Numbered from the stretch's first letter, positions 3,387-38,933 are shown. The stretch is DNA of 51,819 nucleotides from Alphaproteobacteria bacterium (GCA_017464685.1 JAFTYO010000008.1:1-51819), one strand, 5' to 3'. Program-made: numbers and translations. Notes: a model not told the origin generated them from the letters alone.

Positions 3387-3514
3387 CATCATAAACCGTT
3401 TTTTTTTGCAATTTATACGAGTCTTCTTTGTGGATATTTAGTCATTTATGATGTGTGTCTCTCAATATCGTCATTTCTGCGCCTGATCGCTAGCGAAGAT
3501 TAAACGCCGGTATC
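3387..3514. repeat. Dispersed ~125-bp repeat shared with 38906..39029, ending in a degenerate REP-like palindrome
   Basis: Direct alignment: catcataaaccg-Tn-gcaatttatacgagtcttctttgtggata...ctctcaatatcgtcat...tagcgaagatta.acgcc. Confidence 0.92.
3388..3411 (-). promoter_or_regulatory. Poly-A spacer promoter, copy 1 (A9; 12-bp spacer)
   Basis: Minus strand TTGC-A9-CGGTT-TATGAT about 28 bp upstream of the pilin start; same core at 24400 and 38907. Confidence 0.8.
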
Positions 3515-3754
3515 AAGCAACTGTATGACTATATTGAGAAAAGCACCGCTACATCATATTATGATTCTATATATGTTACTGCTATCAAAACTGCTGAAAG
3601 AATTGACTGCGAAAACATTGATGATACTGACGGAGGAAATTGTGCTTTATCTGTTAGGCATGTGTCAGGAGATGCCGGATTAACACTTTCTATACCTGAA
3701 AATGTTGTACCTGACCATTATCAAGCTACTGTTATTCTTACTGCTACTTATTAA
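3494..3754 (+). pseudogene. 5'-truncated DUF4402/Csu-pilin-like gene fragment
   Basis: Open frame without ATG or signal peptide, ending LTLSIPENVVPDHYQATVILTATY*, resembling the 38372 C-terminus LSIPTDVKAGEYTGSFIVTYTY*. Confidence 0.7.
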
Positions 3755-3789
3755 AAAAACACTATCTTGGTGCAGTATTTAAAAATATC

Positions 3790-3817
3790 AAAAAGCCTCG
3801 CAAATGCGAGGCTTTTT
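3790..3817. terminator. Bidirectional intrinsic terminator
   Basis: AAAAAGCCTCGCA-aa-TGCGAGGCTTTTT. Confidence 0.85.
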
Positions 3818-3820
3818 GAT

Positions 3821-4330
3821 TTACCATTCAACCGGCATATCTCTTACCTTTTTAGGCATTTTGCCGGTATACAATATGCAAGTTAAGGCGTGTCTTTCAA
3901 GGTCATCATTATAGACATCCCAGACATAAGGGCTTGAGGCATAAAGCTCAAACGCAACCACCTTATCTCGCAATTCTTCAGGTATTTGGTACAACACCTC
4001 ATAAACCGAAGGCTTGATAAACAACGGATAGCCGCACTTGTGATAAGTGGTAATTTTGGCTATCTGCTTTAGGCTTGAAGCTCTGCCATACACTTCGTTG
4101 TTTGCAATGAAAGTGTAGCTCTGATTAAAAATCTTCCCGCCGTCCATCCAATATTTGAGTGGTTTCGGGTCGTTATAAATACTGAGCCTTCCGTTTTCAT
4201 CTTTGCTGGCAACAGGTCTGATGCGTTTTGCAAGCTCCAAGGCTTTTTCTTGAGGGAGTTGTTTCTCAAGATATTCAAGCTGTGCTCTGATTTGAATGAT
4301 GTTCTGGCTTTCGCCGATGGTTTTATTCAT
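3821..4330 (-). CDS. Hypothetical protein (likely start MNKTIGES at 4330)
   Basis: ORF with own terminator; the upstream ORF extension lies in AT-rich promoter DNA; no family recognised. Confidence 0.7.
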   Translation of the reverse strand: MNKTIGESQNIIQIRAQLEYLEKQLPQEKALELAKRIRPVASKDENGRLSIYNDPKPLKYWMDGGKIFNQSYTFIANNEVYGRASSLKQIAKITTYHKCGYPLFIKPSVYEVLYQIPEELRDKVVAFELYASSPYVWDVYNDDLERHALTCILYTGKMPKKVRDMPVEW

Positions 4331-4434
4331 AATTGACAGATTTATATGTTTATGAAAATAGATATACATTGGTTTTGACAAAAAAGCAAGATGTTTTTTT
4401 AAAAATTTACATACCTTACTTGTATTGTTTTTCT

Positions 4435-4462
4435 TTGACAGCAACATTATTTTATTTATGAT
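4435..4462 (+). promoter_or_regulatory. Sigma70 promoter of the mla operon
   Basis: TTGACA-16 bp-TATGAT. Confidence 0.65.
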
Positions 4463-4497
4463 AAAAATCTGTTACATCCTATCGGAGTGCTAAAAAT

Positions 4498-5604
4498 TTG
4501 GGTGATATAATTTTAACATTACAAGACAAAACCTTAACACTTACTCTCAAAGGCAATTTTATTGATTTTGAGGACGGTAAATTATACCAAAACATTGCAG
4601 GTTATTTACCTGAAAACATCATTATCAACGGACTTGAAATCAACAAATGGGATTCTTCACTTTTGCTTATATTATTTAACTTAAATAAATATGCGAATGA
4701 AAACAACATCAAAATTGAAAATTTATATATGCCGCAAGGTCTTATAAAAATGCTAAAGTTGGCTTTGGTCGTCCCCGAACATATAAACCGAGAAACTATG
4801 CCTGCAAATGAAAGTATATTGGAAAAAATCGGCGGTTTCGGTTTAAATGTATGGCAAAATACCCTAAAAGGAACAATTTTTATGATGACCTGTTTTAAGT
4901 CCTTATGGCTTTTTATAAGACGAAAAAGCTCCGCTCGTAAGACAGATTTTTTATTTGCTTTTGAAGAATGCGGACCCAACGCAATGTCTATTGTGGCTCT
5001 GATTAGTTTTATGGTCGGGCTAATTTTGGCCTTTGTCGGTGCCATACAACTTAAAAATTTCGGTGCACAGGTTTTTGTGGCCGATTTGGTAACCATCGGT
5101 ACAATTCGTATTATGGGTGCCATTATGGTCGGTATTATTATGGCCGGCAGAACAGGCGCTTCGTTTGCCGCCACAATCGGCTCAATGCAGGTAAACGAAG
5201 AAATTGACGCCTTAAAAACAATGGGTATATCGTGGGCGGAGTTTTTGGTTGCTCCTCGTATGGCATCACTTGTAATTGCCATGCCTTTTTTAACCATGTG
5301 GGCTGATTTTTTCGGTATTTCAGGCGGTGCTTTTGTCGGGATTTTGGCTCTTGATATTCCGGCAACCGAATATTTTAATCATGCTTTTAATGCTTGGAGT
5401 ATGAAAAACTTTTGGGTAGGAATTTTTCACGGATTTATCTTTGGCTTTATCATTTCGCTTTGCGGTTGTTACTATGGTATAAATTCTTCCAAAAATGCCG
5501 ATGGTGTAGGAATTGCAACAACCAAAGCGGTAGTATCCTCTGTTGTGTGGCTGATTGTAGCAACCGGTATCATTACCTTTGTTTTTGAAAGGCTCGGAAT
5601 ATGA
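4498..5604 (+). CDS. mlaE: MlaE-family ABC permease with N-terminal STAS-like domain
   Basis: AGRTGASFAATIGSMQVNEEIDAL motif; multiple TM helices. Confidence 0.9.
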   Translation: MGDIILTLQDKTLTLTLKGNFIDFEDGKLYQNIAGYLPENIIINGLEINKWDSSLLLILFNLNKYANENNIKIENLYMPQGLIKMLKLALVVPEHINRETMPANESILEKIGGFGLNVWQNTLKGTIFMMTCFKSLWLFIRRKSSARKTDFLFAFEECGPNAMSIVALISFMVGLILAFVGAIQLKNFGAQVFVADLVTIGTIRIMGAIMVGIIMAGRTGASFAATIGSMQVNEEIDALKTMGISWAEFLVAPRMASLVIAMPFLTMWADFFGISGGAFVGILALDIPATEYFNHAFNAWSMKNFWVGIFHGFIFGFIISLCGCYYGINSSKNADGVGIATTKAVVSSVVWLIVATGIITFVFERLGI

Positions 5605-6365
5605 AAAGTAAAATTGCGGCAAAAAATATGGATATCGGTTATGAAAAAAAAGTTATTATCAAAAATGCAACTTTTGAAGTAAATAATAATGATATTTTTA
5701 TCATAATGGGCGCTTCCGGTTGCGGTAAAAGTACAATGCTTAAAGTATTAACCGGTCTAATGCCGCCATTAAAAGGTAATTTTTACATTGATGATATCGA
5801 CTATATTAAAGCAGATGAACAGACCAAACTCGAAATTATGAAAAAAGTCGGTGTTTTGTATCAAAGCGGCGGGTTGTTTTCTTCCATGACTTTGGCCGAA
5901 AATGTGGCTTTACCTTTGCAAAAATACAGCTCATATTCTAAAAAAGCCATTGATGATTTAGTCAGTTTAAAACTGGCTCTTGTCGGTTTGGACGGTTATA
6001 ATGATTATTATCCGTCACAAATAAGCGGAGGAATGAAAAAACGAGCCGGCCTTGCAAGAGCCTTAGCGCTAGACCCCGAAATTGTATATTTTGATGAGCC
6101 TTCTGCCGGTCTTGACCCTTTGAGTTCGGCACGACTTGATAATTTGATGCAGGATATAAATCAAAATCTTAAAACCACATTGGTTGTGGTTACTCACGAA
6201 TTGTCATCTATTTTTGCCATCGGTACAAACTCCATTTTTTTAGATGCAAAAACTAAAACCGTAAAAGCAAGAGGAAACCCTGCTCAAATATTAAAAAATC
6301 CGCCCAATGAAGATGTTTATAATTTTTTAACACGAGGAAAATATGATGAAAAAAGAGCCGAATAA
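5601..6365 (+). CDS. mlaF: MlaF-family ABC ATPase
   Basis: GASGCGKS Walker A, ISGGMKKR, DEPSAGLDP. Confidence 0.9.
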   Translation: MKSKIAAKNMDIGYEKKVIIKNATFEVNNNDIFIIMGASGCGKSTMLKVLTGLMPPLKGNFYIDDIDYIKADEQTKLEIMKKVGVLYQSGGLFSSMTLAENVALPLQKYSSYSKKAIDDLVSLKLALVGLDGYNDYYPSQISGGMKKRAGLARALALDPEIVYFDEPSAGLDPLSSARLDNLMQDINQNLKTTLVVVTHELSSIFAIGTNSIFLDAKTKTVKARGNPAQILKNPPNEDVYNFLTRGKYDEKRAE

Positions 6366-7134
6366 AAAACGCATTGCCATGTTTATGATTTTAGGACTTT
6401 TAATCATTTCGGCCATAATCTTAAAAAGTGTTGCCGATAACTTTTTTACACATCGAACAAATTTGGCCGTTATGTATTTTAACGAATCCATTAAGGGATT
6501 AAACATCGGCTCTCCCGTGGTGTTTAAAGGGGTGCAGGTAGGAAAAGTCGTTGATATAAAAATCATCACCAATCCGGAAACTTTAGAGTTTAACATTCCG
6601 GTATATGTTCGCTTTGCCAAGGACGGTGATGTCAGCTCTTTAAGTTTTTATAAAGAAATGAACAAAAAAGATGTGTGGAAATCGCTCGTAAACAAAGGAT
6701 TAAGGGCAAAACTCATTTCTCAAAATTTGCTTACCGGTCAACTGATGATTGAGCTTCAGATGTTACCCGATACTCCGATAGAGTTAAAAAAGCCCCATGA
6801 TGATAACACTTTGGAAATTCCGACCGCTCTTTCAACCGTTGCCGGTTTATCAAAAGATTTGCAGGATTTACCGATTAAAAAAATTGTCACCAGACTTGAT
6901 AATATTTTGGGAGAGCTTGAAACAGAACTTCCGAATATATTACCTCGCTTTGCCGAGCTCGGCAAAAAGCTAAACACTTACACCGATAAATCAATACCGG
7001 CAACCAATCAGACCTTAAATCAACTGAGTACAACTTTAAAAGATGTATCAGAGGCGGCTAAATCTATCAAAAATCTGGCGGATTATTTAGAACAACACCC
7101 TGATTCGATTTTGAAAGGAAAGAATAAACCATGA
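6343..7134 (+). CDS. mlaD: MCE/MlaD-family protein
   Basis: TM helix followed by GLNIGSPVVFKGVQVGKV MCE motif. Confidence 0.88.
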   Translation: MMKKEPNKKRIAMFMILGLLIISAIILKSVADNFFTHRTNLAVMYFNESIKGLNIGSPVVFKGVQVGKVVDIKIITNPETLEFNIPVYVRFAKDGDVSSLSFYKEMNKKDVWKSLVNKGLRAKLISQNLLTGQLMIELQMLPDTPIELKKPHDDNTLEIPTALSTVAGLSKDLQDLPIKKIVTRLDNILGELETELPNILPRFAELGKKLNTYTDKSIPATNQTLNQLSTTLKDVSEAAKSIKNLADYLEQHPDSILKGKNKP

Positions 7135-7688
7135 AAAAATTTTTGTACGTTTTAAGTTTTTTATTTATTTCGGGTTGCTTTTCTACTCCGAACAGCAATT
7201 TTTATATGTTGCAATCTTTAAGTCAAAAAACGGTTTCGGATAAAAAACTCCAATTACAGATTTATGATATTTCAATACCCGAATATATTGATAAACCGCA
7301 AATTGTTTTGCAAGAAGCAGATTCACCCGAGCTTGAAATTTCCGAATTTAATCGTTGGGGCTCCAATTTAAGTTCTATGATAAAAAACACCCTAATCAAT
7401 GACTTATCCGTTAATTTGCCAAACGCAAAAATTTTGCCTCTGGCTTACGGAATAAACACACAATATGTCGTAAAAATTCAAATCGAAAAATTAAGCGGGT
7501 GGTTAAAAGATAAAGCAATTTTAAAGGCAAACTGGCAAATCTTAAATGCCAAAGGGAAAGTTTTGGCTTTTCAAACTTTTACATTTGAAGAACAAGCCGG
7601 AAAAACTTATGCCTCTTATGTTAAAGCTCAAAGCAAACTCTTGGCCGATTTATCCTTTGTAATTGCCGATAAGTTAAAAAATATGTAA
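7131..7688 (+). CDS. PqiC-family ABC auxiliary lipoprotein
   Basis: Lipobox FISGC; IPEYIDKPQIV; follows the MCE gene. Confidence 0.8.
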   Translation: MKKFLYVLSFLFISGCFSTPNSNFYMLQSLSQKTVSDKKLQLQIYDISIPEYIDKPQIVLQEADSPELEISEFNRWGSNLSSMIKNTLINDLSVNLPNAKILPLAYGINTQYVVKIQIEKLSGWLKDKAILKANWQILNAKGKVLAFQTFTFEEQAGKTYASYVKAQSKLLADLSFVIADKLKNM

Positions 7689-7689
7689 T

Positions 7690-8142
7690 TTATCGCTTGC
7701 TTTGAAAAAAAGCCTTTAACATTTTTGCCGATTGTTCGGCTAGCACCGATGATACAACTTCAGGTCTATGATGACAGGTTTTGCTTTGATAAAATTTTGT
7801 TCCGCTGACCACCGCTCCGCCTTTTTCATCAATTGCACCAAAGACAAGTTTTCTGATGCGAGCAAACGAAATGGCAGCCGCACACATGGCGCAAGGCTCT
7901 AGTGTAACATATAAATCAAGTCCCCAAAGTCTTTTAGCTTTGAGCTTTTTGCAAGCTTTACGCAAAGCTAAAATTTCGGCATGAGCGGTCACATCTTTGC
8001 CATATTCGGTTTTGTTATATGCTCTTGCAACAATTTTGCCGTCTTGCGGGTCAACTATAACGGCTCCAATTGGCACTTCATCAAAAATATAAGCTTTTTT
8101 TGCCTGCTCCAATGCTTTTTGCATATATTTAATCTCAGTCAT
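7690..8142 (-). CDS. tadA: tRNA adenosine deaminase
   Basis: EVPIGAV, HAE, TLEPCAMC. Confidence 0.9.
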   Translation of the reverse strand: MTEIKYMQKALEQAKKAYIFDEVPIGAVIVDPQDGKIVARAYNKTEYGKDVTAHAEILALRKACKKLKAKRLWGLDLYVTLEPCAMCAAAISFARIRKLVFGAIDEKGGAVVSGTKFYQSKTCHHRPEVVSSVLAEQSAKMLKAFFQSKR

Positions 8143-8212
8143 AAATATCCTTTGAAATTTTAAAAAACTTAAAGTATATTAACCTAAAAGCTAAAAAAAA
8201 GGAAGAAAAAAA

Positions 8213-8935
8213 ATGGCAGAAAGATTGGCAAAATTTATGGCTCGGTCCGGTGTTTGTTCTCGTAGAGAAGCCGAAGAATATATCAAACAACAACGAGTAA
8301 CCGTTAACGGTATAATTGTTGATACACCGGCTTTTAATGTTGAAGGCACGGAAAAAATTTTGTTTGACGGGGAAAAATTGCCGCAAATTGATAAAACTCG
8401 TTTATGGTTATATTATAAACCGGTCGGATTGGTAACAACCCATAAAGATGAGCAAAATCGTGAAACGGTGTTTAATAATTTGCCATCATATATGCCAAGA
8501 GTGGTAAGTGTGGGACGACTTGATTTGAACTCCGAAGGTTTGTTACTTCTTACCAACAATGGTGAACTGTCTCGTGAATTGGAACTGCCGAAAAATGCTT
8601 GGTGCCGTCGTTATCGGGTCAGAGTTCACGGAAGAATTGATACCGCAAAATTAGAAAGCTTGAAAAACGGAGTTAATATAGACGGTATCGAATATGGCAA
8701 AGTTAATGTTACCATTGACAGCCAAAACGGCACCAATGCATGGCTTACGGTCAGTTTGAATGAGGGTAAAAATCGAGAAGTAAGAAAATTGATGAAATAT
8801 GCCAGTCTTGATGTGGCAAGACTTATACGAGTTTCGTACGGCCCTTTCCAGTTAGGCTCGTTAAAAAAAGGCGAAGTTAAAGAAGTGGCGCAAAAAGTTT
8901 TGCAGGAACAACTCGGCTCAAGGTTTAAGTTATGA
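8213..8935 (+). CDS. rluB: rRNA pseudouridine synthase, RluB/RsuA family
   Basis: S4 domain (RLAKFMARSGVCSRREAE), GRLDLNSEGLLL. Confidence 0.85.
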   Translation: MAERLAKFMARSGVCSRREAEEYIKQQRVTVNGIIVDTPAFNVEGTEKILFDGEKLPQIDKTRLWLYYKPVGLVTTHKDEQNRETVFNNLPSYMPRVVSVGRLDLNSEGLLLLTNNGELSRELELPKNAWCRRYRVRVHGRIDTAKLESLKNGVNIDGIEYGKVNVTIDSQNGTNAWLTVSLNEGKNREVRKLMKYASLDVARLIRVSYGPFQLGSLKKGEVKEVAQKVLQEQLGSRFKL

Positions 8936-17912: not shown

Positions 17913-17998
17913 GACATTTCGAAACTTGACATAAATAATTTTAGGTGATATGCTCGGCGCATTAATTATTTTGTAACTTAAACAAAGAAGAGAAAAAA

Positions 17999-19015: not shown

Positions 19016-20944
19016 ATGTCGGTAAATTTATACAATTTTGAACCGTTTGATGAATTTTTATCATCATTTTTAAAACCCAAAAAATATAACTATACTCCTA
19101 CAATGCATTTTGCAAAAAATAATTTGTTAAAAACAAAAAGTGTATATCAAGTGGAACAGAATCGTGAATATATAGCGAGTGCCATGTTAGAACGATACGT
19201 CTATCACAATTTAAAAGCTTTTTTGCTTAGCAATGAAAAAGCACCGTATTTTGAAAAGGCCGTACATTTTGACTATTTACCTGATTGGGCAAAAGAGCGT
19301 GAAAAAGATGGTAAAGATGTTCATATTTTTTGTAAAGATAAAATATCTGATGATATAAAAGAAAACATGGAAACTGTTTGTGATTTTATGTATGACACGG
19401 CTCTAAGCTATGTCGATAAACGAATCGAATTATTTAAATCTACTCAGAAAAAAGATAAAGAAATTAAGATAAATTTGGATAGCTTAAAAACCATAAATGA
19501 GTATGCTGATTTTAACAGTTTACTAAATGCAGCCAAAAAAGGTGATGCTTACAAAAGAAAACAAGAAGAAAAAGCAATAAAAGCCGCTGAGTTCTTAAAA
19601 GATTCTCTATATGGCACCGAATCGGTAATGGCTTTTGATGATGGTATGCAAATTTTGGAATTAAAATCTAAAGTTGCGCTTGATTTTGAAAGTCGTGAGA
19701 TGTGTCATTGTGTCGGTGATGGAGAATATGACGACAATGATGGGCAAAAAATTGATATCTTTTCTTTGCGTGATGAAAAAGGACATCCGCATGTTACACT
19801 TGAATTAAGAAACGGAGTGTTAAAACAATGCAAAGCTTATGGTAATAAAAAACCCAAAGAAGAATATTTGGCATATATCAGAGAGTTTGTACAAACCAAT
19901 GACATAGAAATAAGCAGTGATATGAAGTTTTTGGGTATGTTTAAGCAGGATGGAAAATATTATACTTATGATAATTTACCTAAAGGATTTGTTTATAAAG
20001 GAATGTTGGATTTATCAGGAATCGGACTTAAAAAACTTCCTGATATGTCGCATATTGAAGTAACCGGAAGTTTTATATGTGACAGAAATCATCTTACAGA
20101 TTTAAAAGGTGCTCCTTACAAAGTCGGCGGAAGTTTTTTTGTCAGTTCTAACAGCTTAAAAAGTCTGGAAGGGGCTCCTATATATGTCGGAGAGGATTTT
20201 TATTGTTAAAATAATTATTTAGAAGATTTAATCGGTGCTCCTCGTGAAGTCGGCGGTGATTTTATTTGTTGTTGCAATGAGCTTGAAACCTTAAAAGGTG
20301 CTCCGAATAAAGTAGGCGGTGATTTTGACTGCTCCAACAATAATTTGCATAGTTTGAAATATTTGCCTGAAGAAATAGGTGGTGAGCTTATATACAAACA
20401 AAACTATGTAATATGTCAAGATGAAGAAGAATATGATTTATCTGATTTTCCTAAAGATGTTACCATTAAAGGCGATATCGATTTGTCGGGTATGGGATTA
20501 ACAGAATTGCCCGACTTAACCGGAGTTATAGTTGAAGGTGATTTCAAGTGTTCGGATAACAATCTTGAAAGCTTAAAAGGTGCGCCCGAAAAAGTTGGCG
20601 GAAATTTTGACTGTTCGGGAAACAAAATTAAGAGCACTAGAGGTGCGCCTCGTGAAATCGGCGGTGACTTTATTTTCTCAAAAAACAATATTGAACGACT
20701 TGGCATTGTGCCCGAGGTTAAAGGTAAAATTTTGTATGACGGCAATCCATTGGTTAAAGGCATAATCGAACAAAATAAAGCAACATATATGGCAAAGCAT
20801 TTTGGCTTAATTGAAGAAAGAGGTTCGACTTTGTTAAGCGAAAAAATGTTGGGCAAATTGGTTGAGGCGGCAAAAATTAAAACGGATAAGACGGGTATAG
20901 GTATCAAAGAACTCAAAGAAAGAAAATTCGGTAAATTAAAGTAA
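19016..20944 (+). pseudogene. PcfJ-like domain plus 22-aa LRR protein, interrupted by one in-frame TAA at 20207-20209
   Basis: ESREMCHCVG...IFSLRD...PHVTLE...QCKAYGN; LKGAPxxVGGxFxCxxNxL repeats continue in the same frame across the stop. Confidence 0.8.
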
Positions 20945-23817: not shown

Positions 23818-24330
23818 TTAAAGTGTTTCCGAAATTGTAACAGTTCCACTTACATCCGAATACCAATCCTTTCGCATATTTTCATGATCAATTCTTACTT
23901 CTCTGGCATCAATAGTAAACTTTCCGTCAGAAGAAGTAGTCCCGTCCAACCATATTTCACCTACTTTTACTCCATTAACATCCTGTAGCTCTATGGCATA
24001 GCCATCTAATACTGAGCCTGAAAAATCCGGATTACCCGGGGCATCACAGTTAGCAGCAGTATAACCTTGTACACTTATAACTTCACCAGAATTACCTTGA
24101 CTTGCAGTTCCACTTCCTGTAACAGAAAGGTTGGTACTTTCGATGTTGTTGTCGTGAATTTTATTAAAATCGAATGTTATAGTACCTAACTTCAATTCTG
24201 TACATGTAAATGTTGCAGCATATTCAACATTTCCTGTAACTTCTAGTGTACCAGTATACCTTGTGTCTGAAGCATTTGCATTTGTTGTAGCCATTAAAGC
24301 AACAGCAGATAAAAGAAAATATTTTCTCAT
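23818..24330 (-). CDS. Secreted beta-rich DUF4402/Csu-pilin-like protein (divergent paralog of 38372)
   Basis: MRKYFLLSAVALM..ANA signal peptide; CTELKLGTI vs CTDLNFGTI; C-terminal Y...SGTVTI. Confidence 0.7.
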   Translation of the reverse strand: MRKYFLLSAVALMATTNANASDTRYTGTLEVTGNVEYAATFTCTELKLGTITFDFNKIHDNNIESTNLSVTGSGTASQGNSGEVISVQGYTAANCDAPGNPDFSGSVLDGYAIELQDVNGVKVGEIWLDGTTSSDGKFTIDAREVRIDHENMRKDWYSDVSGTVTISETL

Positions 24331-24365
24331 TTTTTAATTCCTTTCTATAAAAATAGTTAAACTTA

Positions 24366-24426
24366 ATTTGAAAGGTCAAAAACTCACCTCTCATGTCGCA
24401 TCATAAACCGTTTTTTTTTTTTGCAA
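24366..24426. repeat. 61-bp perfect repeat with 38873..38933 (5' leader plus promoter)
   Basis: atttgaaaggtcaaaaactcacctctcatgtcgcatcataaaccg-T12-gcaa is identical at both sites. Confidence 0.95.
24400..24426 (-). promoter_or_regulatory. Poly-A spacer promoter, copy 2 (A12; 15-bp spacer)
   Basis: TTGC-A12-CGGTT-TATGAT. Confidence 0.8.
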
Positions 24427-24465
24427 GTTTAAAGTGTATTGATTTGGGGTTTAAATCAAATTTGA

Positions 24466-24897
24466 GGTAGGCTTAAAAGAACAACCGTTTACAGCGGTCT
24501 TGGAAAAGAAGGACCTTGGTACGGCAAACTTAAAAAAGCTGTTGATTTTACAAGACCTTGTCATGTCTATGCTGATTTAATCGAAAGTGAAAAGCCACTC
24601 ACAGGTCATGGCAGTGTTATCGGTTATCGCATTGCTGAAAATCTGGTGATTCACTCAATGGTCGGAACTAACTATCTTAGAGATGAAATTGATGAATTTA
24701 TCAGAGATTTCGGTGGAAAGTTGTTAAAAGGCGATGAAATACGTCTTGTAAGAAAAAACTTTTCCACCATCAGTAAAATGCGAAAAAAAATTGGCGACAC
24801 CGAGCTTCCGGCCGGCTTGTTTTGGGCAAAACCTTGTAGCGAAGTAATTGAAGCCACAATAATATTAAAGCCCTATGAAGATGATTTAAGAGTCTGA
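24466..24897 (+). pseudogene. 5'-truncated hypothetical gene fragment
   Basis: The frame is open 60 codons upstream of the called GTG (GRLKRTTVYSGLGKEGPWYG...) with no ATG or RBS, bounded by TGA at 24463. Confidence 0.55.
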
Positions 24898-25574: not shown

Positions 25575-26630
25575 TTATATCAGCACTTTTTTCATCAGCA
25601 TCATATCAATCATACCCAAACTGTTTATATTTAATGTTCTGGTATATTCTGCCATATTTAATATGTTTTCCAGCTGTTCAGAAGATTTTGCCTCGTTAAT
25701 AGTCTGAGTTCTAAAACCATATTTATACAAATCCAAAGCATTTTCATAATTTACATAAGTTTGTAATCCTATACAATCATTGTATTTTCCTATCTCTATG
25801 GCTATTTCAAATAAAATATACAGTAATCCGACATTGTCATACTTTTTCATACCGTTAACAGACCAAAATTCTACAAAAACTTTATTTATACCATTTTCAT
25901 TGTTATACTTATATAATGGTGAGCGATCAGTAACTTTTCCGAAAAAATTTTTATATACCCCATTGTCTTTTTTATAAAAATTAAGATAAATTTTTCCTAC
26001 AATTTTATCTTCTGAAATTATGCCATATTCTTCAAGATTATGTTTATATACTTTTCTGTAAATGACAAAGCCACCTAACGCCCCAACAATATTTTGATTA
26101 TCTTTAATTTTTTCAAAATCAATTATATTCTGATTTTTAAATTTGCTTTCTGTAGCCTCAGGCGATAAATACATTAATATATTACCAGAATCAAACGTTT
26201 TATTTTTAATTTGCTCATCAACTTGTGTTCCACATACGTTTTTCTGATCTAAAATTTTAAAACCCAACCTTTTATATTGCAAAACAACATCTTGGTTCAC
26301 CACTAGTGACAATGTTTTGCAATCTGATTCTTCAAACAATTCCTTTGCGGTTTCAATTAATAAATTTTCAATATTTTCATTTTTATTAAAACAGAATAAT
26401 TCGGATAAATACATATTATCGTTTTTTATATTTAAAAGCAAATATCCCACAATTGTCCTTTTACCACTTACAAAGCGATATAATTGTCCTTTTGTTCCAA
26501 ACAAATTATCATCAGATTTATAAACATTTATTATCTTCTCATCTATTTGTTGTGTTCTAATTTTTTGACTCTTTTTAGGAAGCGGAGTTATATTAATCGG
26601 CTTAATAGGAATTTGAGATCCATGTGTCAT
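25575..26630 (-). CDS. Putative tandem GNAT-fold acetyltransferase (start uncertain)
   Basis: Two GNAT-like ends: LLIETAKE..LSLVVN..QYKRLGF and LFEIAIE..NALDLYKYGF. Confidence 0.55.
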   Translation of the reverse strand: MTHGSQIPIKPINITPLPKKSQKIRTQQIDEKIINVYKSDDNLFGTKGQLYRFVSGKRTIVGYLLLNIKNDNMYLSELFCFNKNENIENLLIETAKELFEESDCKTLSLVVNQDVVLQYKRLGFKILDQKNVCGTQVDEQIKNKTFDSGNILMYLSPEATESKFKNQNIIDFEKIKDNQNIVGALGGFVIYRKVYKHNLEEYGIISEDKIVGKIYLNFYKKDNGVYKNFFGKVTDRSPLYKYNNENGINKVFVEFWSVNGMKKYDNVGLLYILFEIAIEIGKYNDCIGLQTYVNYENALDLYKYGFRTQTINEAKSSEQLENILNMAEYTRTLNINSLGMIDMMLMKKVLI

Positions 26631-26710
26631 TTTCACAACTTTCTTATTGCTATTTTTTACTTTATCATCTACTTTATTATAGGTTTTAATGTACATAAAT
26701 GGAGAATAAA

Positions 26711-27163
26711 ATGCAAGAAAACTTTAAAATCAACGTAACACAACTTGTTGAAAAAGTTAAAACTCGCAACTTGCTTTTTTATCCGGCAATTATGCATGTT
26801 TTCGCTCAAGCTCTCAGAGTTAGCGGGTATAGAGTTGATTGTTCAGCATATTTAAATACATTAAATAAAGATAACAAAGATATTTTGTATCAGGCCTTAG
26901 AGACTGATTTTAGTACATATTTTGATACCTATATTAGAAATTGTTTTTGCAACCGCCCCACCGGAGACTTGACACAAAATACTATTTTATTTTTTCCTGC
27001 TAATTTAGGAACTGTTGATGAAAAATATAAAAATATATCGACTTTTTTAATTTATCCGGTTGAAGAAATTAATAATGAACATTTCATAAAATTTAGCACA
27101 GCAAATATACTCTTAAATGCAGATTTTACCGATTTATGCGAAGAACTTGCCGAATTATTTTAA
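26711..27163 (+). CDS. Degenerate CatA-like (chloramphenicol acetyltransferase fold) protein
   Basis: KINVTQL..VK...LLFYPAIMH resembles the CAT N-terminal region; no HHxxxDG; GGAG RBS at 26701. Confidence 0.45.
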   Translation: MQENFKINVTQLVEKVKTRNLLFYPAIMHVFAQALRVSGYRVDCSAYLNTLNKDNKDILYQALETDFSTYFDTYIRNCFCNRPTGDLTQNTILFFPANLGTVDEKYKNISTFLIYPVEEINNEHFIKFSTANILLNADFTDLCEELAELF

Positions 27164-33368: not shown

Positions 33369-33450
33369 TGTTAAAAAAATTCACCTCACTTCTTGCAATG
33401 TTACAAATATATGCTAATATGCGTTAAAATTTAGTATAAAGGAAAGGAAA

Positions 33451-34704
33451 ATGAGCAAATTTAAGTCTGAATTTTTCAACATAATGGTTGAACGAGGTTT
33501 TTATAATCAATGTACCAATGATACGGGGTTTGATGAGTATGTTGCCGATTGTGAACAAAAAGGCATTCCTGCGGTCGGCTATTATGGTTCAGACCCCACA
33601 GGTGACAGTTTGCATGTTGGACACATTGTGCCGATTATGATGCTTAAACATTTTCAAAACTTGGGACATAAGCCAATTATGCTTGTCGGCGGTGCAACCG
33701 CTCGTATCGGTGACCCGTCCGGAAAAGATAAGCTCAGACCGTTTTTATCCGAAGAAACCATCAAGCATAATATTGAGGGCTTAAAAACATCATATAAAAA
33801 ATTCTTAAAATTTGATGACAGTGCAAACGGAGCAATTTTGGTTGATAACTGGGATTGGTTTAAAGATATTAATTATCTTGAGTTTTTACGTGATGTCGGA
33901 ACTTGTTATTCGGTTAACCGAATGCTCACAATGGACAGTGTTAAAAGCAGGCTCGAAAGAGAACAACCGATGTCATTTTTAGAGTTTAACTATCAACTTT
34001 TACAAGGATATGATTTTTGCGTATTATACCAAAAATATGGTTGTCGTGCTCAAATTGCCGGTGCCGATCAATGGGGTAACATAACCTCTGGAACCGAACT
34101 AGGTCGTCGTCGTTACAATGTTGAGTTGTTTGGTTTTACCAGTCCAATTTTAACTGATGCCAGCGGTAAAAAAATGGGTAAATCAGAGGGCAATGCTGTT
34201 TGGATAAATGATGATAAACTTTCTTCGTATGATTATTATCAATATTTCAGAAATATCGGCGATTCGGAAGTCGGAAAATGTTTAAGAGTGTTTACCACAT
34301 TGCCGATGGAAGAAGTGCGCCGTTTAGAAACTTTACAAGATAAAGAAATCAATGAAGCTAAAAAGATTTTGGCTTTTGAAGCGACCAAACTTTGCCGTGG
34401 TGAAGAGGAAGCTAAAAAAGCGCTTGAAACTGCTACCAAAACCTTTGAACAAGGTTTAACGGGAGCAGATTTACCGGTAATAAATGCTGATTTAAATGCC
34501 GGTATCGGGGTTTTAGATGCGTTTTTGCAAATCGGTTTTGTGACATCAAAAGGTGAGGCAAGAAGACTAATTAAACAATCAGGCTTGAAAATTAATGATA
34601 AGGTTGTTACAGATGAAAATTATCAACTTACAACGACTGACTTGGTTGATGGTCAAATAAAACTTTCACAAGGAAAGAAAAAACACGGCCTTGTGAAGAT
34701 GTAA
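33451..34704 (+). CDS. tyrS: Tyrosine--tRNA ligase
   Basis: DPTGDSLHVGH, DQWGNI, KMGKS, C-terminal S4. Confidence 0.97.
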   Translation: MSKFKSEFFNIMVERGFYNQCTNDTGFDEYVADCEQKGIPAVGYYGSDPTGDSLHVGHIVPIMMLKHFQNLGHKPIMLVGGATARIGDPSGKDKLRPFLSEETIKHNIEGLKTSYKKFLKFDDSANGAILVDNWDWFKDINYLEFLRDVGTCYSVNRMLTMDSVKSRLEREQPMSFLEFNYQLLQGYDFCVLYQKYGCRAQIAGADQWGNITSGTELGRRRYNVELFGFTSPILTDASGKKMGKSEGNAVWINDDKLSSYDYYQYFRNIGDSEVGKCLRVFTTLPMEEVRRLETLQDKEINEAKKILAFEATKLCRGEEEAKKALETATKTFEQGLTGADLPVINADLNAGIGVLDAFLQIGFVTSKGEARRLIKQSGLKINDKVVTDENYQLTTTDLVDGQIKLSQGKKKHGLVKM

Positions 34705-34710
34705 AAAAAC

Positions 34711-34747
34711 AAAAAATCCGGAGATTAAAAACTTTCCGGATTTTTTT
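34711..34747. terminator. Terminator after tyrS
   Basis: AAAAAATCCGGA...TCCGGATTTTTTT. Confidence 0.85.
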
Positions 34748-34753
34748 GATGTG

Positions 34754-34825
34754 TTAGTATGTAACTAATACGGTAAACGAACCTGTATATTCTCCATCTA
34801 ATGGGAAATCGGGAAAGCTAAGGAA
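34754..34825 (-). pseudogene. 3'-end remnant of a DUF4402-like gene
   Basis: Minus strand reads FLSFPDFPLDGEYTGSFTVLVTY*; shares GEYTGSF and the DNA word cctgtatattc with the 38372 gene. Confidence 0.7.
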
Positions 34826-34848
34826 AGCTATATAATATTTAAAAACAG

Positions 34849-34875
34849 AAAAGCTTCGGGGATAAGGCCGAAGCT
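34849..34875 (-). terminator. Intrinsic terminator
   Basis: AGCTTCGG-loop-CCGAAGCT followed by a T run on the minus strand. Confidence 0.7.
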
Positions 34876-34883
34876 AATAGATT

Positions 34884-35153
34884 TTAACGATTAAGAGATT
34901 TGTTATATTCCAGAACGGTTTTATAAGCTACGCAGGAACAAGTCTCTTGCTGTACAATTTGTCCGCAATATGGACAAGTGCTCTTTTCACAACAAAAACC
35001 TATTGTTGGAAATTTTCCTGTTTTGGCATCAATAAAAATGTATGCCGGTCTGCCATCATGAAGCTTAAGTTCCTTAAGCTCTTTAGGAATAATAATTCGC
35101 TCCATAACCAAATAATATTTAAACGATTCATAATTATAAAAAATATGAGCCAT
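34884..35153 (-). CDS. Small Cys-rich putative zinc-binding protein (start 35153 or 35105)
   Basis: FCC..STCPYCG......CSC; own terminator. Confidence 0.6.
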   Translation of the reverse strand: MAHIFYNYESFKYYLVMERIIIPKELKELKLHDGRPAYIFIDAKTGKFPTIGFCCEKSTCPYCGQIVQQETCSCVAYKTVLEYNKSLNR

Positions 35154-35221
35154 TATATGTTTTTAGATTTTTGTGTAAAGAAACTAAATCAGACTATAAA
35201 CAATAAAATTTATAAACAAAC

Positions 35222-35249
35222 AAAAAAGCATCAAAATTGATGCTTTTTT
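35222..35249 (-). terminator. Terminator after rpmE
   Basis: AAAAAAGCATCAA-aa-TTGATGCTTTTTT. Confidence 0.85.
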
Positions 35250-35277
35250 ATATATCAATAACAACTAAATAAAACTA

Positions 35278-35511
35278 CTAGTTTGTACCGCTTTTGATAC
35301 CGAAAGCTGCAAACTTGCTGTTAAATTTAGAAACTTGACCACCTGTATCAACCATACGATGAACACCTGTCCATGCCGGATGAGATTTAGGGTCAATTTC
35401 CAAATTCATTCTAGCACCGGCTTTGCCCCATGTGCTGTTTACTTTGCATTCTGTGCCGTCAGTCATCACATAAGTGATTTCATGATAATCAGGATGAATA
35501 CCTTTTTTCAT
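35278..35511 (-). CDS. rpmE: 50S ribosomal protein L31
   Basis: [16 protein letters not shown]. Confidence 0.96.
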
Positions 35512-35597
35512 TTTTCTTCTCCAAATTTAAACTCTATAAACAAAATTTATGCACTTATAACCTAATCAAATAAATTTATCAAGAGTTTTTTTACCTT

Positions 35598-36395
35598 TTA
35601 TTTAAAAATTTCAAAAACTTTTTGACTAAGGTTAAAATTCGATGCTACCAAATTTTGGCTGGCAAAAATTTGTTTTATGTCTTCAACTCTTATGTCTTTT
35701 TGATCTATGGCTCTAACCGAACCGCCGGCTTCTTTAACCAAAAGTATTCCCGCTGCCATAGAAGAAATATGAGAATTTAAGCAAACAAAAGCATCAAGCT
35801 TACCACCGGCTAAATATGCCAAATCTTGTCCGATTGAACCGCTAATGCGCAAATCACCGGTTTTGGCGTTGATGGAAGTTAATATCTTTGTGCTGTTAAC
35901 AATGTTTTCACTGTCAAAATTAGAGCTTATTAAGGAACCGTTAAGTTCTTTAGTGGCCGAAACACGCAAGCGCTCATGATTGCGATATCCTTCTTTATAT
36001 GCGCCTTTGCCTTTCTCGGCAAAAAATGTTTCATCACGAGACGGATTGTAAACAACCGAACATATAATTACATCATTTTCAACCAATGCGGCACAAACGG
36101 CAAAATTTGGATTTCCATGTGCAAAGTTTGCAATTCCGTCAATGGGCGATACGGCAAAATAAGAACTGCAGGATACCTTGTCCGATGATGTAAATATCGG
36201 CAAGTCAGCTCTTATCTTGGCAAGTTCGATTTTTAAGTTTTTTTCAATTCGCGAATATGAATTAAAAACAAAGTTTTTGTTGCTCTTGATAGAATTTTGC
36301 AGTTGTTCCAACTCACAAAAATCTCTATCCAAAGATGAGGCCGATTTTTTTACGGCATTAACAAAAGCCGTTAAAAGAGGTGATACATAAGACAT
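35598..36395 (-). CDS. suhB: Inositol monophosphatase family SuhB-like (catalytic motifs degenerate)
   Basis: PIDG..NFAHG, FFAEKGKGAY, DLAYLAGG.LD, AAGILLVKEAGG; efp-suhB-rpmE synteny. Confidence 0.85.
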   Translation of the reverse strand: MSYVSPLLTAFVNAVKKSASSLDRDFCELEQLQNSIKSNKNFVFNSYSRIEKNLKIELAKIRADLPIFTSSDKVSCSSYFAVSPIDGIANFAHGNPNFAVCAALVENDVIICSVVYNPSRDETFFAEKGKGAYKEGYRNHERLRVSATKELNGSLISSNFDSENIVNSTKILTSINAKTGDLRISGSIGQDLAYLAGGKLDAFVCLNSHISSMAAGILLVKEAGGSVRAIDQKDIRVEDIKQIFASQNLVASNFNLSQKVFEIFK

Positions 36396-36958
36396 TATTT
36401 AGCTCTTTCAACATATGTTGCTTCCGATGTTCCAACCACAATTTTATCACCCGTGTTGATAAACGGCGGAACCATAACTCTTACACCGTTGTCCAAAATG
36501 GCGGGCTTGTAAGAAGATGCTGCGGTTTGACCTTTTACAACCGGCTCGGTTTCAACAACTGTACAAATAACCTGCAAAGGAAGTTGAACGGATATCGGAC
36601 GAGAATTGATATGTGAAATGCGCACATCCATGCCATCGGTTAAAAACGGACGAGAATCGCCTAAAATATCAGAAGGCATGGTAAATTGTTCAAAAGTTTC
36701 GCTTTCCATAAAAGTAAGACCGTTGGAATCTTCAAACAAAAATTGACAATCTTTGTCTTCAACCATCATTTTTTCAACTGTATCTTCGGTGCGGAAACGT
36801 TCATTGGTTTTTGTTCCTTCTTCAACGGCTTTCATTTCTACCTGCATAAAAGCACCGCCTTTACCTGGTTTAATATGATTTGCTTTGGTGATTGTCCAAG
36901 GTTTACCTTTATATTCAATTACCCAACCGATTCTGATTGATCCTGCGAGTTGTTTCAT
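36395..36958 (-). CDS. efp: Elongation factor P
   Basis: KPGKGGAF, ETEPVVKGQTA, VPPFI. Confidence 0.97.
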   Translation of the reverse strand: MKQLAGSIRIGWVIEYKGKPWTITKANHIKPGKGGAFMQVEMKAVEEGTKTNERFRTEDTVEKMMVEDKDCQFLFEDSNGLTFMESETFEQFTMPSDILGDSRPFLTDGMDVRISHINSRPISVQLPLQVICTVVETEPVVKGQTAASSYKPAILDNGVRVMVPPFINTGDKIVVGTSEATYVERAK

Positions 36959-37032
36959 ATTTTTATCTCCATATTTACAATTTTAAGTTTGATTATTTTG
37001 TTAAAAGTGAGCTCAACATACTCTAATATTTA

Positions 37033-37548
37033 TTATTTCGCAACAAAAATTTTATATTTTGTGTCATCTAAAATCACAAAATCAGTCGTAAAGCTTCTAA
37101 AATCAACATCTTCAACCGGCAAAAGTGCAGATTGAAGTAAAAACATTTCACTAAACCATGAGGTAAGCTCTTTGACTTTTTCTTGTCCGTCAATCCAAGC
37201 TCTGAAAATTACAAAATCGGGCTCACATTCACCTACAAGCATTGCCTCGTGTCGGCGATTGCGACATATGGCACCAATAAATTTATTTTTTAAGCCTTGT
37301 GTTAAAGCCCTATAATCTGAAGCAATGTTTTCTGATTTTGATAAATCAACCATTGCTCCGTCAAAATTAAATTTGGCAACGGATTTATCATCAAAGCCAA
37401 GTACGAGTTTTTGTTTTTCTTTTGCCAGTTGAACAAATTTTGTAACAAACGAATCGGGTAAATCAGGTTTTAAGATAAAACACTGTAAATCAGCTTGTTC
37501 CAAAAGTTCAAATTTTTGTTCGGTAATGTGTATAATAAACTTTTGCAT
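37033..37548 (-). CDS. Truncated thiamine-phosphate-synthase-like TIM barrel protein
   Basis: C..RRHEAMLVGE..PDFVIF, WFSEMF; position upstream of efp as in other alphaproteobacteria. Confidence 0.55.
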   Translation of the reverse strand: MQKFIIHITEQKFELLEQADLQCFILKPDLPDSFVTKFVQLAKEKQKLVLGFDDKSVAKFNFDGAMVDLSKSENIASDYRALTQGLKNKFIGAICRNRRHEAMLVGECEPDFVIFRAWIDGQEKVKELTSWFSEMFLLQSALLPVEDVDFRSFTTDFVILDDTKYKIFVAK

Positions 37549-37605
37549 AATCTTGTTTTGCTCTTGTAAAAAAAATTAAAAAATGTATTATAAAAAATAA
37601 TATAT

Positions 37606-37902
37606 ATGAACTCCTCAAAAAAAGGAAGTAAAAAATCTATGGAATTGAAAAAATTACCGCAATCGGAAAAAGCATTAAACGAGCTTGAAAGTTTGTTGCA
37701 ACAACTTCAAGAAGTTTTGCAAAGCAAAAAAAATGCTCTTTTGCAACAAAGACAGTCTTATAAACATAATATGGCTGAAAAAACAAAACAGGTCGATGAA
37801 TTGAAACAAACAATCGCCGATACCTTAAATAAGGTAACAAATGTTGCTCAAAAAATTGATATGGTGTTAAAAGAAGATGGCTCAAGTAACAATAACAATT
37901 AA
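37606..37902 (+). CDS. Coiled-coil protein upstream of zapA (ZauP/ZapB-like)
   Basis: Heptad-rich sequence overlapping the zapA start. Confidence 0.6.
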   Translation: MNSSKKGSKKSMELKKLPQSEKALNELESLLQQLQEVLQSKKNALLQQRQSYKHNMAEKTKQVDELKQTIADTLNKVTNVAQKIDMVLKEDGSSNNNN

Positions 37903-38320
37903 TTCTCGTGAATATGGCATTGCTTGTGGTGACGGACAAGAAGCGCATATTATAAAACTTTCTCGACTTTTAGATGAAAAAGCAAAGCTTTTGACTTCGG
38001 GTAACGGGCAAATTAATGAAAATATGCTCCTTGCAATGGTTGGTTTATTGCTCGCAGATGAACTTGAAGATGCCAAAAAAGGCATTGTCCCGACTGTTGT
38101 TTCTGAGCCGCAAGTAATTGAAAAGGTTGTTGAAGTAGAAAAAGTGGTGGAAAAAATTGTTGAGATAGAAAAACCGATAGAAAAAATCGTTGAGGTCGAG
38201 AAAATAGTGGAAGTGGAAAAAAATGCAGATTTGAGTGCTGTCGATGAGAAAATTTCTACAATAGTTTCCGAATTTTCAAAGCAAATCAGACATATTTCTG
38301 AAGAAATAAAAAATTTATAG
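37877..38320 (+). CDS. zapA: Cell division protein ZapA with EKIVE-repeat insertion
   Basis: MAQVTITINSREYGIACGDGQE, LLAMVGLLLADEL. Confidence 0.9.
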   Translation: MAQVTITINSREYGIACGDGQEAHIIKLSRLLDEKAKLLTSGNGQINENMLLAMVGLLLADELEDAKKGIVPTVVSEPQVIEKVVEVEKVVEKIVEIEKPIEKIVEVEKIVEVEKNADLSAVDEKISTIVSEFSKQIRHISEEIKNL

Positions 38321-38328
38321 ATATATAA

Positions 38329-38358
38329 TAAAAAAACCACCTCCAATTGGAGGCGGTA
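38329..38358. terminator. Terminator between zapA and the DUF4402-like gene
   Basis: A-run then ACCACCTCCA / TGGAGGCGGT hairpin. Confidence 0.7.
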
Positions 38359-38371
38359 AAATTTTGAGCAA

Positions 38372-38836
38372 TTAATAAGTATAAGTTACAATGAATGAGC
38401 CTGTATATTCGCCAGCTTTTACATCTGTGGGGATTGAGAGACTACCAAGAATACGAGACGCTGTAGTACCCGTATCTTGAGTGGTTAATGAAACAGTCAT
38501 AGATCCATTTGCGCCTGTTAAAATAACACTTGTTGGTATTTTAAATTTAGTAGGGTCTTCCATCCGGCATACTGCAACTGAAGCATTTGATACACTGAGT
38601 AGATCTTCTGTTAAAGTGCTCGTTACTTCTTCATCAACATTATTATAATCTAGAGTTAATACAGAATCTTTGTTATTTTGTTTCATAACAATTGTACCAA
38701 AATTTAAATCCGTACAATCAATAGTACCAGCCACCTCAATTGTGGCTTTTGCGGTAACTTCGGCATAGTCTGTGGTTGCGTTTGCTGTGCCTGAAATCAT
38801 CAAAGCAACGGCAGTAGGAAGAAAATATTTTCTCAT
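38372..38836 (-). CDS. DUF4402 / Csu-type fimbrial subunit-like secreted protein
   Basis: Signal peptide, A.ATI, DLNFGTI, C-terminal G.L.IP....GEYTGSF.V...Y; two Cys. Confidence 0.8.
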   Translation of the reverse strand: MRKYFLPTAVALMISGTANATTDYAEVTAKATIEVAGTIDCTDLNFGTIVMKQNNKDSVLTLDYNNVDEEVTSTLTEDLLSVSNASVAVCRMEDPTKFKIPTSVILTGANGSMTVSLTTQDTGTTASRILGSLSIPTDVKAGEYTGSFIVTYTY

Positions 38837-38906
38837 AATTTTATCCTTTATATAAAAATTAAGTTTAAGTATATTTGAAAGGTCAAAAACTCACCTCTCA
38901 TGTCGC

Positions 38907-38933
38907 ATCATAAACCGTTTTTTTTTTTTGCAA
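38907..38933 (-). promoter_or_regulatory. Poly-A spacer promoter, copy 3 (A12; 15-bp spacer)
   Basis: TTGC-A12-CGGTT-TATGAT. Confidence 0.8.

Follow-up and report, generated by a model that had tools for sequence, protein, structure and literature searches.

Organization of the locus

The window analysed here is a stretch of 51,819 nucleotides (nt), the first 51.8 kb of contig C39 in the genome of an uncultured member of Alphaproteobacteria (JAFTYO010000008.1). Three genes for secreted proteins in the window are each preceded by a promoter-like element in which a run of adenines lies between a -35-like and a -10-like hexamer. This element, referred to below as the cassette, recurs throughout the genome, and we suggest that it is a concertedly evolving, slippage-tunable promoter, specific to one lineage and placed before variable secreted-protein genes. 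The probability that we attach to this reading is roughly 0.55.

The core of the cassette, TTGC-A(n)-CGGTTTATGAT, had been recorded in the initial annotation at 3388-3411 (A9), 24400-24426 (A12) and 38907-38933 (A12), and exact matches are found at all three places; the same core occurs in none of 100 dinucleotide-preserving shuffles. All three cores lie on the minus strand, each upstream of a minus-strand gene. The spacers between the hexamers measure 12, 15 and 15 bp in copies 1, 2 and 3, as had been noted, and the distance from TATGAT to ATG is 30, 69 and 70 nt, respectively. The repeat exceeds the core first described: a 91-nt stretch upstream of the tract is 91% identical between copies 1 and 3, and copies 2 and 3 have the tract, the 5′ untranslated region (UTR) and the start of the gene in common. 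The cassette-related features of the window are as follows.

1..657, plus strand: prepilin-like paralogue, 86% complementary to 3202-3339 over its N-terminal coding part (52-189); promoter lost, the contig starting here
2731..3357, minus strand: prepilin-like gene, 208 residues; leader MRKVCEFG, then RSMVEMLGVLAIIGVLS, with Glu at +5; variable, Cys-containing C-terminal domain
3358..3387, minus strand: pilin-type 5′UTR of copy 1, 30 nt (GAGCTCAAAATATATTATAGGAGTTAGTTG), with an AGGAG ribosome-binding site
3388..3411, minus strand: promoter core, copy 1; TTGCAA, A-tract (A9 in all), CGGTT, TATGAT; 12-bp spacer, off-length
3412..3456, minus strand: upstream module of type 1, copy 1 (..ACATCATAAATGACTAAATATCCACAAAGAAGACTCGTATAAA); GANTC (GACTC) at 3419-3423, 7 nt upstream of TTGC
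23818..24330, minus strand: secreted DUF4402-family-like protein (P0002), 170 residues; signal peptide MRKYFLLSAVALMATTNANA; alone without a significant Pfam match, aligns with the family
24331..24399, minus strand: DUF-type 5′UTR of copy 2, 69 nt; predicted stem-loop at about 24369-24393, beginning about 7 nt past the -10 hexamer
24400..24426, minus strand: promoter core, copy 2; A12, 15-bp spacer, canonical
24427..24471, minus strand: upstream module of type 3, copy 2 (..ACCTCAAATTTGATTTAAACCCCAAATCAATACACTTTAAAC); minority type in which TACAC replaces GANTC
38372..38836, minus strand: secreted DUF4402-like protein (P0003), 154 residues; Pfam DUF4402 E 6.7e-05, 24.0 bits against a cut-off of 25.2; beta-sandwich model with a predicted local distance difference test score (pLDDT) of 83
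38837..38906, minus strand: DUF-type 5′UTR of copy 3, 70 nt; predicted stem-loop at about 38876-38900
38907..38933, minus strand: promoter core, copy 3; A12, 15-bp spacer, canonical
38934..38978, minus strand: upstream module of type 1, copy 3; 91% identical to the copy 1 module despite the other gene family; GACTC at 38941-38945

Two open reading frames downstream of copy 3 (37882-38346 and 37033-37548) were considered as members of the family and rejected, with 15-17% identity. At 48604-48660 the cassette-flanking repeat survives as a remnant, joined to the opening 10 nt of an upstream module (TACCTCAAAT); tract and hexamers are both missing, as though this were the edge of a decayed or truncated cassette.

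Copy number and distribution in the genome

The genome to which the window belongs (G000; 1.38 Mb, 35% G+C, 52 contigs, 85% complete) holds 56 copies of the exact pattern, and the reversed pattern, used as a control, has no match. Once the observed variants of the linker and of the second hexamer are allowed, the number rises to 73. Many cassettes are found within a few hundred bases of contig ends, and because the assembly breaks at cassettes, 73 is a lower bound. The tract lengths are A12 in 51 copies, A11 in seven, A13 in three, A14 in one, A10 in three, A9 in four, A8 in two and A6 in two. Moreover, 52 of the 63 A or T runs of at least 10 nt in this genome are exactly 12 long.

The initial annotation took the element for a dispersed, genome-wide module serving two unrelated protein families, and a search of the genome and its relatives with a tally of the downstream genes bears this out: the motif stands mostly before secreted or surface families. 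At least 68 of the 73 copies head a secreted-protein gene. The first downstream gene is DUF4402-like, with an MRKYFLL...ANA signal peptide, in 42 cases, prepilin-like in 25 and a cysteine-rich secreted protein in one; another copy is cut after 9 codons by a contig end, its start resembling the prepilin family, and four are remnants without an intact gene. Some of the cassette-headed prepilin-like proteins have an extended leader of about 45 residues. A tblastn census, in which some cassette-less loci are short fragments, gave the following counts for G000.

DUF-type loci: 40 with a cassette; 3 at a contig end; 5 without a cassette within 260 nt
Pilin-type loci: 22 with a cassette; 13 at a contig end; 13 without a cassette within 260 nt

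Five pairs of cassettes are divergent and about 190 bp apart (C3:65461/65686, C28:23771/23959, C32:59/258, C40:13050/13237 and C41:22246/22445). A repeated element (..GGCGTCTAATCTTCGCTAGCGCTCAGGCGCAGAAA..) lies between the partners of such pairs and also upstream of window copies 1 and 3.

Anatomy of the cassette

The cassette is composed of GANTC-N7-TTGCAA-spacer-TAnnAT followed by a family-specific 5′UTR. The part upstream of the core is a module of about 45 nt, which starts at (T/C)ACCTCA and comes in three homologous types. The A-tract had been described as lying between the two hexamers, and the layout TTGCAA-[A10 + CGGTT]-TAnnAT is present in all 73 copies. While the invariance of TTGC is a consequence of how the pattern was defined, the second hexamer reads TATGAT in 58 copies, TAAGAT in 10, TAGAAT in four and TATAAT in one, with T1, A2, A5 and T6 kept throughout.

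In complete pilin-type copies 30-33 nt separate the -10 hexamer from a start codon equipped with a Shine-Dalgarno sequence; in DUF-type copies the distance is 64-75 nt. The pilin-type UTR of the complete copies (30-33 nt) contains AGGAG. The DUF-type UTR folds with a mean minimum free energy of -10.4 kcal/mol compared with -5.0 +/- 2.3 in shuffles, and a stem-loop begins 6-7 nt past the -10 hexamer in most of the unique UTRs (29 of 37). Since this is where the transcript would begin, the stem-loop may be read as a 5′-terminal stabilizing hairpin.

The hexamers suggest a sigma-70-type promoter, with a putative start site about 7 nt past the -10 box. Readings of the motif as a sigma-54, sigma-28, sigma-32 or extracytoplasmic function (ECF) promoter were rejected by eye against the consensus sequences; the invariant T1, A2, A5 and T6 are those of a sigma-70-type -10 element. 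A terminator formed by the T12 run on the other strand was likewise rejected, as the hairpin lies about 17 nt from the run. The sigma factors found in G000 are two RpoH-like sigma-32 paralogues (C45:1996-2895 and C25:63000-63875) and one ECF factor.

The module types are divided unevenly, though not strictly, between the gene families: GTATAAA modules precede 19 pilin and 6 DUF genes and TTTTTAC modules 29 DUF and 3 pilin genes, indicating exchange between copies. Such mixing is what one would expect if the core were mainly a recombination substrate instead of a promoter, that is, a shared point where modules and gene cassettes are swapped by gene conversion or site-specific recombination. The same explanation would account for window copies 1 and 3 sharing a module and not a gene, for copies 2 and 3 sharing a UTR and not a module, for cassette loci that differ between two species of one genus, and for the many contigs that end in a cassette. 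We nevertheless consider it very improbable: every copy has the position, orientation and conserved hexamers of a promoter, and repeated promoters would in any case undergo homologous exchange, which is compatible with promoter function. Neither a recombinase nor an inverted-repeat architecture is on record, no search having been aimed at them.

The two protein families

The initial annotation spoke of two pilin families. This description holds for one of them, which is type IV pilin-like; that the DUF4402-like proteins are pilins is unproven, with no usher or chaperone found (see below). The pilin-like proteins carry the signature of a class III signal peptide (MRKVCEFG, then RSMVEMLGVLAIIGVLSVGGIAGY): a short basic leader with Gly as its last residue, Glu at +5 and a hydrophobic N-terminal helix. 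In eight aligned paralogues the N-terminus is invariant from G8 to M36, compared with a mean column identity of 40% in the C-terminal domain, and the AlphaFold model (pLDDT 78) shows a helix from 7 to 64 followed by an alpha/beta head. P0001, the pilin-like protein, has no match in Pfam or NCBIfam; the paralogue at 1-657 matches N_methyl weakly (E 0.033, 14.2 bits against a cut-off of 21.2). In a Foldseek search of the pilin-like model against the PDB no pilin was among the best 50 chains (best E 0.03, template modelling score, TM, at most 0.25 on the query). Components of an assembly machinery are encoded in G000: a prepilin peptidase A24 (E 1.9e-17), a GspE/PilB-like ATPase (576 residues), PilC/GspF-like and PilP-like proteins and a PilT-like ATPase.

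The DUF4402-like family, with its Sec signal peptides and a mean column identity of 33%, is by these signs secreted and variable. Of 17 aligned paralogues, 11 match Pfam DUF4402 (PF14352) at E <=0.01, the best of them at 1.8e-08. The predicted structure, a beta-sandwich (pLDDT 83), has its best, weak Foldseek matches in Caf1 (E 0.027, TM 0.44-0.51) and CsuA/B (E 0.19, TM 0.33), none reaching E <=0.001. The usher family (PF00577) has no match in G000, at 85% completeness, nor in any of five further genomes (G003, G013, G123, G153 and G101), and the PapD_N chaperone (PF00345) none in five (G000, G003, G013, G123 and G153); the E. coli controls matched in both searches.

Tract purity and length

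Across the 73 copies there is not one non-A base in 836 tract positions. By comparison, the sites of the linker and the -10 hexamer vary by 0-19% and those of the upstream module by 1-50%. The length of the tract does vary among copies, as the initial annotation had it: 22 of 73 (30%) are not A12. Among 11 pairs of copies that are at least 97% identical over their flanks (86 nt), four differ in tract length; length thus does not follow the divergence of the flanks, as slippage predicts.

Purity and length bear directly on the alternative that the cassette is a constitutive, strong family promoter, its A-tract a structural spacer, rigid or bound by a protein, that works best at one exact length, with off-length copies being slightly impaired or decaying paralogues and no switch involved. 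A single length in 70-79% of the copies of three genomes, and the same total spacer in a second variant of the cassette (see below), would follow naturally from such a constraint. Both A6 copies and three other short-tract copies have a broken gene or none, as decay would have it, and a 5′ stem-loop together with a strong Shine-Dalgarno sequence fits highly expressed mRNAs. If length or A-richness sufficed, however, interrupted tracts should be tolerated, and they would be more stable, yet none is seen in the 836 sites. Moreover, 17 of the 22 off-length copies head intact genes, and about 47 paralogues from two families, all on at once from strong promoters, would probably be unusual for pilins. 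On balance this alternative appears unlikely.

Spacer geometry

Ordinary promoters in the window were stated to have spacers of 16-17 bp, and the three sites in question read accordingly: TTGACA-16-TATGAT at 4435, TTGACA-17-TATGCT at 17926 and, in our own reading of the minus strand, TTGACA-17-TACAAT at 41359. A scan for promoters and terminators, which was barely above shuffles (81 against 66.1 +/- 8.3), was used solely to confirm the sites at 4435 and 17926. In the genome as a whole, the commonest spacing is N=17 for TTGACA-N-TAnnnT (65, compared with about 22-37 at other spacings) and N=16 for TTG[AC][CA]A-N-TA[TAG][GA]AT pairs that lie outside the cassette (55, compared with 18-39). The cassette spacer of 15 bp thus lies 1-2 bp below the norm of this genome, in line with the initial annotation, and the peak of other promoter-like pairs at 16-17 bp makes sensitivity to spacing plausible.

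The share of A12 is 51 of 73 copies in G000, 43 of 61 in a genome of another genus (G013) and 70 of 89 among the matches listed for a second species of the same genus (G003), the latter two being hand counts. Upstream of pilin homologues in other metagenome-assembled genomes (MAGs) we found 48 distinct promoters of the cassette design, 34 of them with a 15-bp spacer. The commonest tract is A12 where the linker is 5 nt long (CGGTT; 12 of 18) and A10 where it is 7 nt long (CGCGAGC and similar; 22 of 30). Both combinations give the same total, and therefore the 15-bp spacing, not the count of A, is the conserved quantity.

Copies with 16-17 bp (A13 or A14) are few: four of 73 in G000 (three A13 and one A14, three of them pilin genes), seven of 61 in G013 and one of 89 among the G003 matches listed. 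The genes of all four in G000 are intact. A15 is absent from G000, from G013 and from the G003 matches listed.

These numbers can be read as the initial annotation did: A12 (15 bp) would be OFF and A13-A14 (16-17 bp) ON, so that some 70-150 genes would be mostly silent and a cell would express one or a few of them. Ordinary promoter-like pairs of G000 favour precisely 16-17 bp, the few copies at that spacing are a biologically sensible ON number, all with intact genes in G000, and pure tracts suggest selection for switching; large surface-protein families are usually expressed few at a time. The silence of A12, on the other hand, is assumed. A single OFF length across two variants and two genera would need recurrent selection via ON or gene conversion, and A15 copies, expected when A14 copies switch off, are missing. 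We regard this version as possible, if on the unlikely side. The broader reading of a slippage-tunable promoter leaves the direction to one side: whether A12 is active, with off-length copies turned down, or poised low, with A13-A14 high, seems about equally likely from the sequences. In the first case the A12 peak would reflect purifying selection, in the second a state adjoining ON, and gene conversion among copies could sharpen the peak under either. In both cases 15 bp is the conserved state, active or poised.

Conservation in relatives

The sequencing runs that contain the window are animal gut metagenomes, and homologues of the pilin-like proteins occur in MAGs of uncultured gut Alphaproteobacteria. 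With a loosened pattern applied to 41 relatives, copies were numerous in G000 (70), G003 (146) and G013 (61); G002 has one and the rest have none. A linker-independent pattern, GACTC-N7-TTGC-A7, was applied to 201 genomes of the family and is multi-copy only in G000 (62), G003 (153) and 10 of the 12 genomes searched in the sister genus, g8 (4-111), with a single match in six other genomes and one control match. The cassette is not an artefact of assembly, since it recurs in assemblies made independently for other species.

Of 20 cassettes sampled in the sister genus (G013), 19 stand before pilin-like genes, and a search of two genomes of that genus (G013 and G123) did not reveal the DUF family. 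In G003 several dozen matches to the DUF-type cassette region stand beside 14 to the pilin type. Pilin cassettes in G013, together with the DUF family in G000 and G003, suggest that the cassette is primarily a pilin promoter, to which the second family was added in the lineage of G000 and G003. Other genera have pilin homologues without any A-tract.

At the locus of copy 2, BLAST aligns only rplJ-rplL and the tRNA-side part in G001 and G004-G006, which belong to the same genus, and not the gene or its promoter; no cassette was seen in the rplL loci fetched from these four genomes. G003 has an A8 cassette at this locus, followed by unrelated sequence. G003 retains the flanks of both copy 1 and copy 3; its site for copy 3 has no cassette, and its flank of copy 1 ends at a contig break inside a cassette.

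Among pilin paralogues without a cassette, we observed two conserved leaders. One is structured, about 90 nt long (GGCGGATGTCGG...ACATCCGCC) and followed by a hairpin and a T-run; it looks like a riboswitch with a terminator, and Rfam gave sub-threshold matches only (sRNA-Xcc1, 29.4 bits against a gathering score of 53, E 0.025). The second (..CTGGAAGG..CTTCCAGTCGCTTTT..) has a terminator-like end, is common to MAGs of other genera and has no Rfam match above threshold. Their locations, in G000 unless stated otherwise, are given here.

Leader of about 90 nt: C3 ~40900-41400 (L138), C36 ~3700-4250 (L139), C51 ~24000-24560 (L140); L094 in another MAG
Second leader: C12 ~6900-7450 (L141), C23 ~26350-26900 (L142); L087, L102, L105

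In many pilin homologues from other MAGs (L033, L035, L043, L047, L055, L085, L097, L104 and others) the Gly cleavage site is preceded by a long N-terminal extension. The DNA coding for these extensions is rich in short palindromes (e.g., TCGGGTCAAGCCCGA and CTCCGGTCAAGCCGGAG), as if repetitive extragenic palindromic (REP)-like elements were embedded in it.

A fixed GANTC site

In 62 of the 73 G000 copies GANTC, in the form GACTC, begins 12 nt before TTGC, leaving a gap of 7 nt. It stands at the same place in 39 of 47 promoters from other MAGs and in 19 of 20 from G013. The latter alternate between GACTC (13) and GAATC (6), and hence the GANTC pattern itself is what is kept. G000 encodes a full-length orthologue of CcrM (E 7e-151 to PDB 6pbd) as well as GcrA (E 1e-39). 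GANTC is under-represented about two-fold in this genome, with 2177 occurrences compared with 4473 expected from base composition. Collectively, these data make the cassette GANTC a conserved candidate site of CcrM methylation.

In Caulobacter, GcrA-responsive sites are reported near -20 or within +2 to +30, with the motif YGAKTCK (PMC4647560). CcrM, GcrA and a GANTC at a fixed place are all present here as in the CcrM/GcrA promoters of Caulobacter. The site differs in lying at about -45 to -41 and in reading AGACTCK or GGAATCT, with C or A at N; in both its position and its N base, the cassette GANTC departs from the Caulobacter rule for GcrA/CcrM promoters.

A model for the cassette

In the model that we favour, the cassettes would be promoter-plus-leader units that evolve in concert and precede genes with a conserved secretion leader and highly variable mature parts. 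Relative to the putative start site, the order would be the module of about 45 nt with GANTC at about -45 to -41, a gap of 7 nt, TTGCAA, the pure A-tract with its short linker, TAnnAT and the 5′UTR. As the spacer is a 12-nt homopolymer, replication slippage would shift the spacing of the hexamers by single bases. Such changes in length would be expected to alter expression, and to do so reversibly, so that the transcription of each gene could be adjusted individually, heritably and reversibly, as at a contingency promoter. About 30% of the copies are off-length at present.

Several points weigh against this model. Broken genes are no more than mildly commoner in off-length copies, at 5 of 22 compared with 3 of the 43 A12 copies that could be assessed. 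The 15-bp spacer is atypical for sigma-70, the hexamers being the whole basis of the sigma assignment, and RpoD was not found in the 85%-complete G000 assembly. Gene conversion alone could maintain a sharp single-length mode, and a pure A-tract might serve structure (rigidity or protein binding) and not mutability. Furthermore, the cassette loci are not syntenic with those of G003, the one same-genus species with cassettes, and there are no usable orthologous pairs. Finally, contigs from four sequencing runs break at every cassette and so yield no tract lengths for one and the same locus. The search for runs listed 20 of DNA and none of RNA; the four used, all from one study and each containing at least half of the sampled sequence words, were compared over G000:C3:19500-37800, which has four cassettes (A12, A10, A9 and A11). 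Long run contigs end about 70-100 nt short of each cassette, and the cassettes are covered by short, multi-copy pieces of paralogues; a single cassette scan of metagenome contigs gave no match.

The tract purity and the length patterns look selected. With one cassette per about 10-20 kb of reduced genome, kept across two genera, the density is high, and if tract length controls expression, the bacterium would possess a very large, cheaply encoded repertoire for varying its pili and surface proteins against host immunity or phages. In practical terms, cassettes break short-read assemblies and are an easy sequence marker for the lineage. The natural series from A6 to A14 also offers defined promoters with which effects of spacer length and A-tracts on alphaproteobacterial RNA polymerase could be studied.

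Other repeats in the window

Two coding repeats lie elsewhere in the window. At 20059-20679 there are five copies of an 87-nt repeat (63-nt period) of the leucine-rich type LKGAP..VGG.F.C..N, and at 48337-48468 a 33-nt repeat (W-E/D-G-T-K-E-V).

Comparison with known systems

Homopolymer spacers in promoters classically switch single surface genes or small families in pathogens, and here such spacers are found in uncultured gut commensals. The literature searched on MAGs of gut Alphaproteobacteria, on their pili and on DUF4402 contained no description of the cassette.

In Mycoplasma hyorhinis the vlp switch is a poly-A tract between -35 and -10, one length of which is ON, and silent vlp genes have various longer tracts; in the cassette, by contrast, 70% of the copies share one length. 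In Neisseria meningitidis porA and opc and in Haemophilus influenzae hifA and hifB, repeats in the promoter spacer set expression via the spacing of the hexamers, the hif promoters being divergent. These are single loci, with no multi-gene cassette and no shared leader. The vlp genes encode surface lipoproteins, each gene with a highly conserved 5′ region, and show combinatorial, phase-variable expression (PMC4198240). On this description a surface-protein gene family in which each gene has its own conserved 5′ region is common to both systems. They differ in that three to seven clustered genes of a wall-less Mollicute stand against dozens of dispersed genes in a Gram-negative alphaproteobacterium.

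Bordetella offers a further parallel. Its four fimbrial subunit genes (fim2, fim3, fimX and fimN) share a C-stretch in their promoters, the length of which alters transcript abundance and differs among strains (PMC1891110). As here, dispersed paralogous genes share a promoter element with a homopolymer. The two systems differ in several respects: four genes of one family with a C tract there, compared with 73-146 copies, two families and an A tract here. The tract lies between the site of the BvgA activator and the -10 element there and between -35-like and -10-like hexamers here, and its function is experimental in Bordetella and sequence-inferred in the present case.

The far-reaching proposal that this is the largest homopolymer-controlled contingency system known is, in our view, rather unlikely to hold in full. 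It would comprise 70-150 genes per 1.4-1.6 Mb with a poised, low 15-bp state one slip from ON, and would combine slippage with methylation in a stochastic, heritable display of type IV pilins and, in this species, of co-opted DUF4402 beta-sandwich proteins, giving antigenic or phage-receptor variation in a commensal. A homopolymer inside the promoters of paralogous surface-protein genes is already established for Bordetella fim, and likewise for vlp, porA/opc and hif. The cassette differs in its scale, with 73-146 copies in 1.4-1.6 Mb, in its uniform resting length, in the 15-bp geometry across two variants, in serving two unrelated families, in the GANTC site and in its host, a gut commensal alphaproteobacterium with a reduced genome.

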